This document shows positions 9,602 to 15,782 of a stretch of DNA of 64,000 nt, piece by piece. Every line of letters begins with the position of its first letter. Positions within the stretch are counted from its first letter, which is position 1. The translations under genes were made by a program, and so were the position numbers. Source of the DNA: Sphingorhabdus sp. (GTDB taxonomy: Bacteria > Pseudomonadota > Alphaproteobacteria > Sphingomonadales > Sphingomonadaceae); contig NZ_JBIICD010000008.1 of assembly GCF_044239045.1 (NCBI RefSeq), forward strand, positions 8,311 through 72,310. Direction: 5' to 3'. The notes under the pieces were generated by a model. That model did no database searches, had not been told where the DNA came from, and saw only the letters and a program-made list of their open reading frames with translations.

Positions 9602-10723
9602 TTACATTCCCGAACCTGGACCATAGGTGACTTCCACGCGACGGTTTTGCGGTTCACGCTCACCATCTGCAGTTTGTACCAATGGTGCAGTTTCACCGAA
9701 TGCTTCGCTGGCAATCGCGCCAGCTGATACGCCCTTGGACTCAAGATACGTACGAACGGTATCGTTACGACGCTGTGAGAGGCCAACATTGTACTTTGCA
9801 GCACCCGACTTATCGGCGTGACCTGCAAGCATAACCTTCGCACTGCCACAGTTCGAATATTGCGCAACGGCATTATCGAGAACCGAAGCCGCGTCTGGAC
9901 GCAGGTTCGATTTATCCCAATCGAAGAACACGATATAAGGACCCGTGTTGCACACTGGCGCAGGTGGCGGTGGTGGCGGTGGTGGGGGTGGTGCCACATA
10001 AGGTGGCGGTGGTGGTGGTGGTGCCACTTCAACAGGCGCAGGTGCACCGCCGAAGTTATAAACAAAGCTACCCATCACGCTGTGCGAACGGAAGCGTGTC
10101 TCTACGGCACGGCCAAGACGATCAACAAGACCGACCTTATCCGCGTTGAAGAAACGATACTTCAGGCCCACATCCCAGTTGTCGCTCAATGGCGCACGAA
10201 CGCCAGCAAGTGCCTGCCATGCAAGACCCGTATCGGAGTCATCGAGGAATGAAGGTGCTGCTAAAGTGGTTTGCGCGTCTACACGAGCAACACCAACGCC
10301 GCCACCAACAAAGCCCTGAAGGCCGTCGTCATCACCGAAATCAAACATCGCATTGACCATGAAGCTCAATGCATTTGCATCACCAGCTACGGCGTAGTTA
10401 CCGCCAGCTACCAAAGTCGTGGCCGTGCCCCGTGTGATCTGAGGTGCGGAGCTGTTGAAACCAGACACATTCGCTTTACGGTATGAGACTTCTGATTCGA
10501 GACGGAAACCGCCAAAATCATATCCGACTACGCCGCCGAAATCATAACCCTTGTCTGTGTCTACTGTTGCCGCATTTTTCTGGGCACCAATATCCAAAGC
10601 AAGGTCTTCTACTATCATGGCACCGCCATCAACTCCGACATACCACTGGTTATCGCGGGCCAAAGCCGGTGACGCCAGAGCAGTAGAAGCGAGTGCCAAA
10701 CTTATGGCTAACTTACGCATCAA
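9602..10723 (-). CDS. ompA: OmpA family protein (beta-barrel, polyproline hinge, peptidoglycan-binding domain)
   Basis: Signal peptide ending ALA, alternating beta-strands, Pro-rich linker, GHAD...YNVGLSQRR, QNRRVE. Confidence 0.93.
   Translation of the reverse strand: MMRKLAISLALASTALASPALARDNQWYVGVDGGAMIVEDLALDIGAQKNAATVDTDKGYDFGGVVGYDFGGFRLESEVSYRKANVSGFNSSAPQITRGTATTLVAGGNYAVAGDANALSFMVNAMFDFGDDDGLQGFVGGGVGVARVDAQTTLAAPSFLDDSDTGLAWQALAGVRAPLSDNWDVGLKYRFFNADKVGLVDRLGRAVETRFRSHSVMGSFVYNFGGAPAPVEVAPPPPPPPYVAPPPPPPPPPPAPVCNTGPYIVFFDWDKSNLRPDAASVLDNAVAQYSNCGSAKVMLAGHADKSGAAKYNVGLSQRRNDTVRTYLESKGVSAGAIASEAFGETAPLVQTADGEREPQNRRVEVTYGPGSGM
9958..10030. repeat. (GGT/GGC)n low-complexity repeat encoding OmpA polyproline runs
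   Basis: Encodes APPPPPPPYVAPPPPPPPPPPAP on the minus strand. Confidence 0.85.
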
Positions 10724-10894
10724 CTTTCCCCTTATCTATCTTAGGAACGGAAATTCGAGAACGCTGGTTTACCCATTCTGTTCCATCGATGCAAGTCGCT
10801 ATGTCCTTATACTGTTGCTAAAATGTCGCCATTTTTGGCGATTTATCATAATATTTGCTGCGTTTTTGAGCGTTATCGGCCCATGCTGCTAAGC

Positions 10895-11401
10895 TCATGT
10901 TGCTAATATGCCCAATAGCCGGAAATATTGCAAAATTGCCACAAGTGCCGCGCGCGCTTCGCTGTCGACGGCAGTGCCACCGGTTGGATTGGATATCGAA
11001 GGCGCGGTGGTCCATTGGCCTGATATGAACAAGCTATGCCGCCGTGTGGACTTATTCCAAACCCGCATAGCTTCATGGGGAGCGATAAAGCGCCAACTGC
11101 CGCCAATCCAGTAAGCGATTTGACCGGCTTTGTTCGCCCACGCCCCCGCTGGCGTTCCATTAATGATCCAAGATTTGCCAATATCATTGTCGGTTACGGC
11201 GGGTACCGCGGACAAGGCCAGCGCCCATGCGTCACGAAACGCCGGCGAGCGCCGCCGTTCGGCATGGACCGCACTGCTCAACACCCCCGCCGCGCGCGCC
11301 GACGCCGCCACATTCGCCGTCTGCGCCAAATGGTCCAGAAAAAGGCTACGGATTTTCATATTCAACCGCGCATCCGGCACGGGTGTTTTGTTGATGGCCA
11401 T
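10895..11401 (-). pseudogene. Chimeric ORF: small-terminase-like HTH N-terminus fused in frame to a DUF2793 C-terminus (probable GTA/prophage deletion scar)
   Basis: N-half FLDHLAQTANVAASARAAGV...ERRRSPAFRDAWALAL; C-half WIINGTPAGAWANKAGQIAYWIGGSWRFIAPHEAMRVW...PTGGTAVDSEARAAL; ATG at 11401 with AGGAGG SD. Confidence 0.7.
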
Positions 11402-11420
11402 ATCCAGCCCTCCTGAGCGC

Positions 11421-11453
11421 AAAGAAAAAGGGCCGAAGTTTGCGCTTCGACCC
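11421..11453 (-). terminator. Intrinsic terminator in the leader just upstream of the chimeric ORF
   Basis: Minus strand GGGTCGAAG-CGCAAA-CTTCGGCCC-TTTTTCTTT. Confidence 0.75.
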
Positions 11454-11509
11454 CAAAGGTGATGATGAAAGCGAGCCCCAACGCGACTCGCAATTTTCGA
11501 CTATGACAT

Positions 11510-11538
11510 AAATTAAGCTTTTATGGTTACGATGTCAA
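11510..11538 (-). promoter_or_regulatory. Putative sigma70 promoter of the chimeric ORF
   Basis: Minus strand TTGACA-N17-TAATTT in an AT-rich patch. Confidence 0.5.
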
Positions 11539-11627
11539 TATGTTTTTAGCCTATTTGGTTATTACGTAAAGCCCCACACCCACAACAGCATTTCGCATCT
11601 CCCCCGCTTTCGCTAAAGCCCCCCCCC

Positions 11628-12179
11628 ATGTCCCGCATCATCCTGTTCAACAAACCTTATGGCGTCTTGCCGCAATTTACCGACAAGGGGACGGAGGGCT
11701 CGCCGCGGCCGACTTTGTCGCAGTTCGTCGATGTGCCGGGCGTCTATCCGGCGGGGCGGCTCGATATGGACAGTGAGGGGTTGATGCTGTTGACCGATGA
11801 TGGCCGGTTGCAGGCGCGGATTTCGGACCCGAAATATAAAATGGCGAAAAGCTATCTGGTGCAAGTCGAGGGCGATATGTCCGACGATGCGTTGCTGCAG
11901 TTAAGGCGCGGCGTTTCATTGAAGGATGGCCTGACCCTGCCTTGCGCGGCGGAGCGGATTGCCGACCCGATGCTCTGGCCACGCGACCCGCCGATCCGTG
12001 TGCGGCTGTCGGTGCCCGATAGCTGGATCATGCTCACCATTCGTGAAGGCCGCAACCGTCAGGTCCGGCGTATGACCGCCGCCGTTGGGCATCCGACATT
12101 ACGGCTTGTCCGGCGCGCGATTGGCGAATGGACGATGGATGGCCTTGCACCAGGCACTTGGCGCGAGGTTGAGGGCTAA
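11628..12179 (+). CDS. rluE: 23S rRNA pseudouridine synthase, RsuA/RluE family
   Basis: [34 protein letters not shown]. Confidence 0.9.
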
Positions 12180-12355
12180 GGCTTTACCGGCCGTGCGATG
12201 CGCTTGCCCTTGGTCCGGCTGGTCAGATGAAATTGCCCGCAACGGTCGCAGGCATAATGCCGCAGCGTGATGGTCGCCGCTGCAATCGCCGATAGCGCGT
12301 CTGCCGCGGTCGCATAACGCGCTTTCTTCGCGCAGATGCTTAACCGCGTGCGCAG
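12176..12355 (-). CDS. Small basic Cys/His (zinc-ribbon-like) protein, 59 aa, absent from the ORF track
   Basis: Hand translation (M)[58 protein letters not shown]; CTG start 5 nt after a GAGGA SD; fills the gap exactly. Confidence 0.65.
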
Positions 12356-12356
12356 A

Positions 12357-13508
12357 TCAATCCTCGCTATCGAACGCGATGCAGCCCTGATTGCAGAGTT
12401 GCGTCAGAAGATCGACGGCGGCGGGGCTGCCCGCGATGGCGGCATCCAGAACAAGGCTGTCCGCAGCGCACAAATCTTTAGCCAACGCCGCCGTCTCGCC
12501 AACACAGTCGAAACAGATGCCATCGGCAAACAGCATCAGCGCGTCCTTGCCGCCTGCGATAAAGGCCAGACGGCTCGCCGGATTACGCGCCAGCGGCAAT
12601 TGCGCGTTGATCGCCGCGCGCAGTTCCTCCGGCGTAACGGGCTCTTCGGGCCGCCAATCCATATCGGGATATTTGGGGGTGCTGTTGAAGGTGCCGAACC
12701 AGCGGGCGAAATGGGCGGGGTCGGACAAGGATTCCAACATCATCTGCTGAAGCCGCCCAAGCGCATCGGGTAAAATCTCGCCTGGATTGGCTTGGGCCTT
12801 CAAATCGGGGTCGCGGTAGAGTTCATCATCTGGAATGCCGTCGAGAATATCGTCGACATAATGCCCCAAAATGTCGGCGCGCGATGGGGCGCGGAAACCG
12901 ACCGAATAGGTCATGCAATCCGCGCCCATAGCAACGCCATTATGCGCGATGCCCGGCGGGACGTAGAGGATATCGCCGGGCTCCAGCACCCATTCCTCGG
13001 TCGCCTCAAATGCGCTCAGCAGTTTCAAATCCTCATGCGGCAGCAAAGGCGTATCGGCATCGCAGTGCGCGCCAATCTGCCAATGACGGCGGCCAAGCCC
13101 TTGGATCAGGAAAACATCATATTGGTCGAAATGCGGCCCGACCCCACCTTGGTCGGCGGCAAGGCTGACCATCACATCGTCGATGCGCCAATTGGGAATG
13201 AAACGAAACGGCGCGATCAGGTCGGCGACAGCAGGGACATGATGGTCCACCGCTTGCACCAGCAACGTCCAATGGCTTTCGCTTAAACCCGAAAGCCGTT
13301 CTTCGGCCAGCGGGCCTTGCTCCATCTCCCAACCAGTTTCGGTCTGAATAATCAGCCGCGATTCCGTTTCCTCTTCGCACGCCAGCCCCGCCAGCTCGTC
13401 CGGCTCCAGCGGGTTTTGCCAGTCGCGAAACGCATTGCGGATCAGCAGCGGTTTTTTCTGCCAATATTCGCACAGGAATAAGTCGATGTCGAAATTTTGA
13501 AGGTCCAT
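12357..13508 (-). CDS. roxA: JmjC/cupin 2OG-Fe(II) oxygenase, RoxA/YcfD-like
   Basis: YWQKKPLLIR, WTLLVQAVDH, WRIDDVMVS, GPHFDQYDVFLIQG.G.R.W, LEPGDILYVPPG.AH. Confidence 0.8.
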   Translation of the reverse strand: MDLQNFDIDLFLCEYWQKKPLLIRNAFRDWQNPLEPDELAGLACEEETESRLIIQTETGWEMEQGPLAEERLSGLSESHWTLLVQAVDHHVPAVADLIAPFRFIPNWRIDDVMVSLAADQGGVGPHFDQYDVFLIQGLGRRHWQIGAHCDADTPLLPHEDLKLLSAFEATEEWVLEPGDILYVPPGIAHNGVAMGADCMTYSVGFRAPSRADILGHYVDDILDGIPDDELYRDPDLKAQANPGEILPDALGRLQQMMLESLSDPAHFARWFGTFNSTPKYPDMDWRPEEPVTPEELRAAINAQLPLARNPASRLAFIAGGKDALMLFADGICFDCVGETAALAKDLCAADSLVLDAAIAGSPAAVDLLTQLCNQGCIAFDSED

Positions 13509-13546: not shown

Positions 13547-13966
13547 TCAGCGCGCAAACAAATTCGCGTCGTCGGCAAAGGCTTTGAACTCCAACGCATT
13601 GCCGCTGGGGTCATAAAAGAACATCGTGGCTTGCTCGCCCACTTGGCCCTTGAACCGGATATGCGGCTCGATACCAAAACGGACGCCCGCCGCCTTTACC
13701 CGTTCGGCCAATGCCGTCCATTGCGCCATATCCAAAACAACGCCGAAATGCGGAACGGGGACGTCATGGCCATCGACGGGATTATGTGTCGATACGCTGC
13801 GCGCTGACGCATCCAAATGCGCGACAATTTGGTGGCCGAAAAAATTGAAATCGATCCATTGATCCGATGACCGCCCTTCGGCGCAACCCATGACAAAGCC
13901 GTAAAAATGCCGTGCCTCGGCCAGATCATGGACGGGAAAGGCCAGATGGAATGGACGTAAGCTCAT
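13547..13966 (-). CDS. VOC/glyoxalase family protein
   Basis: [36 protein letters not shown]. Confidence 0.9.
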
Positions 13967-14159
13967 TTTTTGGTCACCGGTTTAGGCAAGGGTTGGTCGA
14001 TGCTGTCAGCACTAGCAAGCTCTTGTGCCATTTGCACGGCGCAACTGTTGACCCGCGGCAAATTGCTTGGCCGCTGACTGAGCTGGCCCATTGTAAACCG
14101 CAAGCAACGACGCTGTTTGTCCGATTGCAATTGTCACATAGGGACGGCAAAGGCGGGGC

Positions 14160-15782
14160 ATGCAGAAAATCTCCGCCCTGCTTCATCGATTTCCGCGCTG
14201 GGCCGCTATGGGCGCTGGCGCTTTGTCGGCTTATGGTTTTGAACCTTGGGGGCTTTGGCCACTGACTTTGGTCTGCTTTGCGTTGCTCATCCACCTGATC
14301 GCGCACGCCCCAAATACAAAGCACGCCTTCATTCTTGGCTGGCTGTTCGGGGTCGGGCATTTCACCTTTGGCAATCAATGGATTGCGGTCGCCTTCACCT
14401 TTCAAGCGGCGATGCCGATTTGGTTGGGCTATATCGCGGTGGTTGCGCTAGCGCTGTATCTGGCGGTCTATCCGGCTTTGGCGGCGGCGGGAGCCGTTTG
14501 GATACGCCAATTCGCAGCGAAAACCCCTCCGCCCGACCGCGACGATGTAAGGAACGGCGCTGCCACATATTCGCTCATCCTCTCCTTTGCCGGCTTGTGG
14601 ATCCTGACCGAATGGCTGCGCAGTTGGGTGTTCACTGGCTATGTCTGGAACCCGCTCGCGGTCGGATTTGTTTCGCATTGGTTTGATCTATGGCTTCCGA
14701 CAATCGGAACCTACGGCGTTGGGGGGCTGATGATCTTGGCCAGCGGTGCGATGGCGCTGCTCGGTAGTCGACGTTGGACAAACGGATTTGTTTTGGCGGC
14801 GATTGTCGGCGTGGCCATTTTGTCGTCGGCCAAAATTTATGTGACGGAGCCGTCGCTCAGCACGCGAACCGCCGTCACCGTCGTGCAACCCAATATCAGC
14901 CAAGCCGACAAATATGCACCGGGCTATGACGTGATCAACTTTGCCAAATTGGCGATGAACAGCCGCCCCTTGCCCGGCCAAGCGCCGCGCCTGATCCTCT
15001 GGCCGGAGGCTGCAATTCCAGACTATCTGGAGGACGGATATCCCTATCCATATTATCAGAGGCAAGCGGGCGAAAGCGCCGCCGGTGCGCGCGCACGCCT
15101 CACCACGCTGATGGCTGATGGTGATGTTCTGGTGACAGGGGCAAACCGCCTTATTTTTGAAAAACGTCAATTGGTCGCTGCGCGCAATAGCGTCTCCGCC
15201 ATGGACGCCTTTGGCCGTATCCTTGGCCATTATGACAAGGCGCATTTGGTGCCTTATGGCGAATATCTGCCCATGCCATGGTTGCTGAAACCGCTTGGGT
15301 TGGCAAGATTGGTGCCGGGCAGCCTAGATTTTTGGCCCGGGCCCGGCGCGCAGACGATGACCGTGACCGTTGACGGCAAGCCTGTAAAAATTGGCATGCA
15401 GATTTGCTATGAAATGATTTTCTCTGGTCAGACGGTGGACCGCAATAACCGGCCCGATTTCATCTTCAATTCATCGAACGATGCCTGGTTCGGCACGATT
15501 GGCCCGCCGCAGCATTTGGCGCAGGCGCGGTTGCGCGCGATTGAAGAAGGCTTGCCCGTCATTCGTTCCACACCAACGGGGATCAGCGCGATAATCGACG
15601 CCGATGGCCGGATCCTGCAAAGCCTGCCCTTGGGCAAGGATGGCCGCATTGATGCGTTTTTGCCGCGCGCCAAAGCACCGACATTCTTTGCGCGATTTGG
15701 CAACGTCATTCCTTTGGCTTTTGCTGGGCTGCTGATCGTGTTGGCATTGTTACCGCTTGCCCAGCGGCGCGCTTCTCGCTAA
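14160..15782 (+). CDS. lnt: Apolipoprotein N-acyltransferase
   Basis: Multi-TM N-terminus; nitrilase triad WPEAA, YDKAHLVPYGEY, ICYE; SNDAWFG. Confidence 0.95.
   Translation: MQKISALLHRFPRWAAMGAGALSAYGFEPWGLWPLTLVCFALLIHLIAHAPNTKHAFILGWLFGVGHFTFGNQWIAVAFTFQAAMPIWLGYIAVVALALYLAVYPALAAAGAVWIRQFAAKTPPPDRDDVRNGAATYSLILSFAGLWILTEWLRSWVFTGYVWNPLAVGFVSHWFDLWLPTIGTYGVGGLMILASGAMALLGSRRWTNGFVLAAIVGVAILSSAKIYVTEPSLSTRTAVTVVQPNISQADKYAPGYDVINFAKLAMNSRPLPGQAPRLILWPEAAIPDYLEDGYPYPYYQRQAGESAAGARARLTTLMADGDVLVTGANRLIFEKRQLVAARNSVSAMDAFGRILGHYDKAHLVPYGEYLPMPWLLKPLGLARLVPGSLDFWPGPGAQTMTVTVDGKPVKIGMQICYEMIFSGQTVDRNNRPDFIFNSSNDAWFGTIGPPQHLAQARLRAIEEGLPVIRSTPTGISAIIDADGRILQSLPLGKDGRIDAFLPRAKAPTFFARFGNVIPLAFAGLLIVLALLPLAQRRASR

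Follow-up and report, generated by a model that had tools for sequence, protein, structure and literature searches.

The closest described system is RcGTA, the gene transfer agent of Rhodobacter capsulatus encoded by g1 to g15. DUF2793 is the RcGTA tail-fibre domain, found in the product of rcc00171 (PMC5026251, PMC10883770). Recurrent pseudogenisation and loss of GTAs is established in alphaproteobacterial lineages (Kogay et al., 2024, PMC10883770), and the persistence of altruistic, lysis-dependent GTA production despite non-producers is an open question (PMC10883770). In the roseophage vB_DshS-R4C, the tail fibre consists of a rod (residues 1-35), a knob (36-117), and a foot (118-230), with the N-terminal extension of the rod binding the megatron (PMC10276861). 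In Caulobacter, the GTA is under GafY/IHF activation and GafZ anti-termination, acting through a long leader and a terminator located behind the first gene (PMC11150451).

In the relatives of the organism studied here, the parental cluster has the same gene order and Pfam content as RcGTA, with a TerS-like g1, Terminase_6, portal, DUF6127, S78 protease, capsid, tail genes, DUF2460, and Rcc01698_C. The fibre gene is the last of the cluster in this Sphingorhabdus-like clade, whereas it is at a separate locus in R. capsulatus. Unlike RcGTA, the 64-kb stretch of DNA that was analysed (the window) keeps no more of the cluster than 63 g1 codons and 105 fibre-gene codons, joined in a single ORF (Table 1). 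It is highly likely that this ORF was left behind by a single deletion of approximately 13.6 kb of the GTA cluster, as a scar that is most likely decaying. As such it is an example, resolved to the nucleotide, of a known process of GTA loss and no new kind of element.

Table 1. Features of the rluE-ompA locus in the window, and deletion junctions in related genomes and contigs
Feature	Position	Strand	Basis or loci
ompA-family porin gene, conserved right-hand neighbour of the GTA cluster	9602..10723	-	
Chimeric ORF g1(1-63)::DUF2793(45-149)	10895..11401	-	Profile and protein searches
DUF2793-derived segment: knob beta-domain and C-terminal helix	10895..11212	-	PF10983, alignments A1/A4, AF2
Codon 97 (TAC, Tyr); TAA stop in sister allele	11111..11113	-	L024-L027
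Junction microhomology GGCCTTG (7 nt)	11219-11213	-	Parental DUF2793 5′ sequence and g1 orthologues
g1-only segment: N-terminal 4-helix HTH domain	11220..11401	-	PHROG 4044, g1 orthologue alignment, AF2
Retained g1 upstream block, candidate promoter and leader	11402..11590	-	Alignment of 15 loci
Intrinsic-terminator-like hairpin, stem 9-10 bp, loop CGCAAA, then TTTTTCTTT	11419..11454	-	
RluE-like pseudouridine synthase gene (PF00849), conserved left-hand neighbour, divergent from g1	11628..12179	+	
Junction g1 to DUF2793			Window type, L008, L023/L051, L050
Junction g1 to g15			L028, L039, P0063
Junction g2 to g15			L004-6
Junction g2 to DUF2793 or just upstream of DUF2793			L007/L034, L029, P0022
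Junction g3 to g15			L017
Junction rluE-g1 intergenic to g15 or DUF2793			L031/L037, L032, L011/L041/L042/L030, L015, L016, L018

The chimeric ORF

The ORF has 168 codons and a TGA (10897-10895), starts with the ATG at 11401, and is preceded by an AGGAGG ribosome-binding site. A TTG at 11422 was considered as the start and rejected, as it adds only seven codons and the start in the relatives is MAINKT. The initial annotation had described two ill-matched halves in this one ORF, a small terminase HTH and a DUF2793 domain without its N-terminus, and this description was borne out by profile and protein searches. With the N-terminal half searched alone, residues 5-62/64 match PHROG 4044 'terminase small subunit' (E=7e-10), and this part is approximately 80-90 % identical to g1 orthologues at their N-termini; these orthologues are 167-171 aa long and encoded directly upstream of TerL. 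The oligomerisation and C-terminal part of g1 (about 105 aa; orthologue residues ~65-168) is absent, and from residue 64 on the sequence is that of DUF2793.

Codons 64-168 of the fusion correspond to residues 45-149 of a 149-aa DUF2793 tail-fibre protein, with residues 72-130 matching Pfam DUF2793 (PF10983) at 50.4 bits against a cut-off of 27. Since this match begins at position 28 of the profile (28-86 of 87), the domain in the fusion is without its N-terminal third. The missing residues 1-44 form a conserved segment with invariant R8, LPLLAV, Q18-A19, E22, and HNEA, and hold most of the invariant positions of the DUF2793 family in the family alignment. An NCBIfam search gave no match to either half.

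Full-length homologues from elsewhere were sought as a refutation of the proposed deletion. In a search of approximately 5.8 billion proteins, which gave 103 matches in three groups, there were none outside the lineage with the same junction. The only full-length match is one 98 %-identical protein of 168 aa with this junction; a truncated allele of 96 aa (P0026) also spans a window-type junction. The second group is made up of 149-aa DUF2793 proteins that align to residues 62-168 only, and the third of 167-171-aa g1 proteins that align to residues 1-64/74 only, one of which is named 'Terminase' in Sphingorhabdus wooponensis. Because the halves match separate full-length families, they are parts of two different genes.

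In the AF2 model of the fusion (mean pLDDT 80), residues 15-64 are helical, 77-132 form a beta knob, and 142-163 form a further helix; alignment A3, in the C-terminal half of which two unrelated families are mixed, served as AF2 input only. The best fold match to the model is the R4C fibre chain of PDB 8GTC, and the DUF2793 profile of the clade matches residues 7-111 of this fibre (8GTC chains S/T, deposited as 'Ribonuclease III') with E=4e-13. Compared with the R4C fibre, the fusion has no rod, and a short C-terminal helix replaces the foot. The g1 part resembles the N-terminal helical HTH of the Sf6 gp1 DNA-binding domain (PDB 3HEF), with a fold match over 53 residues (rmsd 1.6 A, probability 0.91) at a weak Foldseek E-value of 1.2. 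In comparison with a working small terminase, it is without the oligomerisation core and the C-terminal region. The predicted tryptic peptide across the fusion junction is DAWALALSAVPAVTDNDIGK.

The junction in metagenomes

The sequence occurs only in lake-water metagenomes, evidently its source, and the assembly graph of run X5 branches exactly at the junction, as might be the case if the contig were chimeric and the true genome kept the cluster. There is next to no chance that the junction is such an artefact, however, as unitigs of all eight runs examined (X1-X8) cross it (11190-11339) with 0-4 differences, the exact fusion protein is found on 54 contigs, which come from several sources, and ENA and JGI assemblies made by other assemblers have the identical junction between diverged flanks (L003, L024-27, L055/56). 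Together these exclude misassembly and supply the support that the initial annotation had wanted for the junction. Furthermore, a k-mer assembler would not be led astray by a repeat of only 7 nt. The k-mers of positions 10000-12400 are present at 86-99 % in twenty metagenome runs from lake water, which represent different samples and studies. In run X5, the fused path has a depth of ~33 and an unfused DUF2793 path a depth of ~14, with a downstream unitig common to both; an exact search with the 30-nt extension of this unfused allele did not find it in any of the 56 fetched loci.

Intact clusters in relatives and the proposed deletion

A complete RcGTA-like head-tail cluster is present exactly between rluE and ompA on the 61-kb Logan contig SRR30597350_24356 (L001/L002). 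It begins with g1 (168 aa), TerL, portal, DUF6127, S78 protease, and capsid, continues with head-tail connectors, tube, chaperones, tape measure, DUF2460, g13, and g14, and ends with the Rcc01698_C megatron g15 followed by a 149-aa DUF2793 gene. The order given in the initial annotation, with the small terminase first and DUF2793 last, next to ompA, is thus seen in the intact clusters of relatives. The left flank of this contig (LNT, glyoxalase, JmjC, rluE) and its right flank (OmpA, GlnD, AMP-ligase, LGT) contain the same genes as the flanks in the window, at 86-95 % aa identity. When the 19 proteins of this cluster were compared with the 64-kb window by tblastn, only the fusion ORF was found and no other head-tail gene; the set of genes that defines a functional head-tail cluster (TerL, portal, protease, capsid, tube, tape measure, and megatron) is therefore not present in the window. 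With this ORF at the ancestral locus, the organism can be recognised as lacking the main GTA head-tail cluster there. Between orthologous rluE and ompA genes, intact clusters were found in at least six lineages, including S. wooponensis 03SU3-P, UBA656, SupBloom_067, WA123a, and several metagenome contigs.

The reverse history, with an ancestral fused gene that the cluster entered by insertion in the relatives, is refuted by the diversity of breakpoints at the locus, as insertion cannot produce some 18-20 different ones. In addition, both halves of the fusion are shortened versions of GTA genes that are elsewhere complete and conserved, lineages with 77-92 % identity in the flanking DNA have the cluster at this same locus, and trees of the flanks show intact and deleted states interleaved. 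Insertion has a negligible probability, and the intact clusters at the orthologous locus support the proposal of the initial annotation that everything between the first and the last gene was lost in one in-frame deletion.

In the window, the g1-specific sequence ends at 11220 and the DUF2793-specific sequence starts at 11212, with the shared microhomology between them (Table 1), where a breakpoint near 11215 had been anticipated. The fusion reads ...GCG CTG GCC TTG / TCC GCG GTA... at the junction (marked by the slash), g1 orthologues read GCG CTG GCy TTG GCC GAA, and the parental DUF2793 reads ...CAC ATG GCG GTG GAA GCG GCC TTG TCC GCG.... This parental 5′ sequence is carried by the JGI contigs L053 and L054, with 98.5-99.4 % identity to the window over the DUF2793 part, and by one unitig of run X5; all three leave the window sequence exactly at 11219. 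Comparison of the g1 orthologues with the parental DUF2793 forms shows GGCCTTG to be common to both parental genes, and allowing one mismatch the shared sequence becomes GGCCTTGnCCG. The microhomology would point to microhomology-mediated illegitimate recombination. Compared with the reference contig, the window lacks approximately 13.6 kb, a stretch that begins at g1 codon 64 and ends at DUF2793 codon 44.

The events may be envisaged as follows. The ancestor, of a Sphingorhabdus-like lake lineage, would have had an RcGTA-like cluster between rluE and ompA, of which one deletion would have removed the 3′ two-thirds of g1, all of g2 (TerL) to g15, and the first 44 codons of DUF2793, and with them TerL, portal, protease, capsid, head-tail and tail genes, and the megatron. 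The ends would have been joined by illegitimate recombination at the 7-nt GGCCTTG, the reading frame being kept by chance. The remaining ORF would have no GTA function and would be drifting towards a pseudogene. Since the putative g1 promoter/leader and the ribosome-binding site are retained, transcription of the ORF may persist under whatever GTA regulation remains.

Probable decay of the fused gene

The initial annotation had left the choice between a decaying scar and a new fusion protein. In four JGI samples (L024-L027), alleles with the window-type junction have a stop at codon 97 (Table 1); 14 contigs carry the resulting 96-aa ORFs (P0026, P0118, and P0119). The fusion of the window differs from that of L024 by 6 non-synonymous and 7 synonymous changes (pN/pS 0.29), compared with 1 and 16 in GlnD and 0 and 18 in AMP-ligase; the difference between 6/7 in the fusion and 1/34 in GlnD plus AMP-ligase is significant (Fisher p=8e-4). 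Between the window and L055, pN/pS is 0.42 in the fusion and 0.05 in rluE. Overall, values of 0.29-0.42 for the fusion, which come from small counts (13-18 substitutions) and are raw with respect to transition bias, stand against 0.00-0.05 for GlnD, AMP-ligase, and rluE. Both of the properties by which a pseudogene was to be recognised, constraint that is relaxed relative to the neighbours and an inactivating allele in the population, were therefore found.

About 3 % of single substitutions in the fusion ORF create a stop, so that ~0.4 would be expected among the 13 that separate the window from L024; with one observed, the codon-97 stop is compatible with neutrality. Of five junctions between two coding sequences, only that of the window type is in frame, where chance predicts one in three; those of L008, L023/L051, L050, and L004 are out of frame. 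These five come from scans at the DNA level and are independent of gene calls and of the protein search, whereas other in-frame fusions (P0046/L028, P0038/L029, P0022, P0063) were found by the protein search, which is blind to out-of-frame cases. The open frame at the window junction is consistent with chance. Residues 1-44 of the fibre, lost from the fusion, align with the R4C rod, and the megatron g15 is deleted too. Among metatranscriptome contigs (X24-X27), there is a 189-nt piece over the 3′ end of the fusion only and none that crosses the junction.

If the chimera were instead a functional new protein under selection, combining the terminase HTH with the fibre knob and helix, it would be, for example, a regulator, a DNA-binding surface, or an oligomeric factor. 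In keeping with this, the ORF is open on 54 contigs, most contigs with the ORF have it intact, the AF2 model consists of two folded modules, the putative promoter/leader and the ribosome-binding site upstream show full conservation, and pN/pS, at 0.3-0.4, is less than 1. However, the nonsense allele is on 14 contigs from several samples, constraint is approximately 10-fold weaker than in the flanking genes, the one stop among 13 substitutions is what neutrality allows, the in-frame state is what chance predicts, and both halves are without the parts that mediate their known interactions. Given the nonsense allele, the relaxed constraint, the chance frame, and the loss of the docking segment together with g15, a scar fits better than a new protein, and of the two possibilities first raised the decaying scar is favoured and the new fusion protein is improbable. 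A residual or new function is still allowed a slender chance because of the folded modules in the AF2 model and the pN/pS below 1.

The region upstream of g1

The stretch of approximately 190 nt that precedes g1 hardly varies among 15 loci, whether the cluster is deleted or not, and is much more conserved than coding DNA, which differs by 10-20 % between species. This block may be the GTA promoter and leader. It contains TTGACA (11538-11533), a 17-nt spacer, a weak -10 sequence TAATTT (11515-11510), and a leader of ~100 nt. The hexamer pair was not flagged in a sigma-70 scan, as its -10 matches the consensus at only 3 of 6 positions, and it was consequently dropped as a promoter call.

The terminator-like hairpin and its T-run end the leader, directly before the ribosome-binding site. 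In the 12 leaders compared with RNAalifold, the hairpin is kept in all 12, with one-sided changes in the stem and no compensatory ones; the structure is therefore a prediction. The leader had no match above threshold in Rfam, where suhB and BjrC68 scored ~18-20 bits against gathering scores of 39-41. By analogy with GafYZ in Caulobacter, control of the g1 leader by a type of anti-termination is plausible, and if such control applies, the scar ORF would be silent in most cells.

There are assembly-graph branch points at 11219 and 11573 within single lake samples (runs X5 and X7), and at 11573 some strains have other sequence beside rluE, which translates as VVKDWAVNSL. This is the N-terminus in P0024 (L030), the first residues of which (MLLWVG) also begin a 257-aa ORF that is located between rluE and g1 in L004 (8142-8915) and in L005 and L006. 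The 257-aa product is probably membrane-associated and has no significant Pfam match; its lineage (L004-L006) has the g2-to-g15 deletion. Three bases upstream of the rluE ATG there is a run of nine C (11616-11624; G9 on the other strand), where relatives mostly have GGGGGTG, and this homopolymer is within the region of the rluE ribosome-binding site.

Repeated loss at the rluE-ompA locus

Many different deletions of the same cluster are present in related genomes, a finding that goes beyond the initial annotation. In the rluE-ompA interval, approximately 18-20 different junctions were identified in related lake genomes and metagenome contigs (Table 1), not all of which need be primary events; a nesting analysis guarantees about five, since the positions of the breakpoints show by themselves that at least five scars could not have arisen from each other through further erosion. 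P0063, P0022, and P0048 are known from protein records only; in P0048, on a 733-bp contig, the N-terminus of g1 is joined to a fragment of a TPP enzyme. The cluster is absent in 8 of the 13 recovered GTDB species representatives of the clade, each with its own breakpoints. No deletion reaches the last 81 nt of DUF2793 or rluE, and it may be that the neighbouring genes and their control regions set the limits of deletion.

In neighbour-joining trees built from the flanking genes, lineages with the cluster are interleaved with deleted ones, and the nearest relatives of the window, at ~91-92 % nt identity, are L015, which is deleted with another junction, and UBA656, which is intact. Between the window and L055, synonymous divergence is 0.147 in rluE, ~0.12 in the g1 part, ~0.03 in the DUF2793 part, and 0.004 in ompA. 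Such mosaic divergence across 2.5 kb (9602-12179) indicates recombination across the locus, and suggests either homologous recombination or a local sweep around ompA. Alleles at the locus thus seem to move by recombination.

In being a deletion, and in the interleaving of GTA-positive and GTA-negative lineages, the loss described here is like those documented in other Alphaproteobacteria. It goes beyond them in its nucleotide resolution, in the number of junctions at one orthologous locus in closely related lake species, and in the occurrence of fused and unfused DUF2793 together in run X5. That independent deletions are so dense at one locus, and apparently coexist with unfused forms in lake populations, is a useful addition to what is known. 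No paper on such repeated loss in Sphingorhabdus was found in the open-access literature. It is conceivable, if rather less than probable, that the scar is one instance of an ongoing, repeated, and possibly selected loss of the GTA in Sphingorhabdus-like lake bacteria. On this reading, the ~18-20 junctions would be separate, near-exact excisions of one and the same cluster of 13-14 kb. If non-producers are indeed sweeping, through 'cheater' dynamics or genome streamlining, the locus would provide a natural system for the study of GTA maintenance. Losses that are frequent, datable, and still segregating make the question of GTA persistence testable by metagenomic time series. For annotation, the ORF is best described as a GTA remnant or pseudogene, rather than as a 'DUF2793 domain-containing protein' or a 'terminase'.

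Other variation in the cluster and its flanks

In the WA123a-type lineage, the portal gene of the GTA is extended to an ORF of 639 aa (L049:6279-8198; also L046:10739-12734 and L020:12663-~14580), in which Phage_portal (E=4e-74) is followed by a Gly-rich linker and a C-terminal Endonuclea_NS_2 nuclease domain (E=7e-24). One or two YezG-like ORFs of the immunity type are directly after it. From its domains, this ORF looks like a polymorphic-toxin module fused to the GTA portal; a literature search for GTA plus 'polymorphic toxin' returned nothing relevant. There is a 1-nt frame change between the portal and nuclease parts in L046, and a stop at codon 401 in L020.

The otherwise intact cluster of this type also contains extra ORFs (L046:5150-8000, 9810-10740, and 13900-14720, with L049 and L020 alike). 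A DUF3800 gene and a 333-aa ORF are between rluE and g1, a DUF2335 membrane protein is encoded between g2 and g3, and an NYN-domain protein between g4 and g5; g1 and g4 are slightly shorter than in the reference.

In ompA, the Pro-rich linker (window ~9960-10030) differs in length between samples, with GGTGGCGGT or GGT inserted behind 10001 in runs X4 and X25, and many unrelated contigs end in this low-complexity linker.
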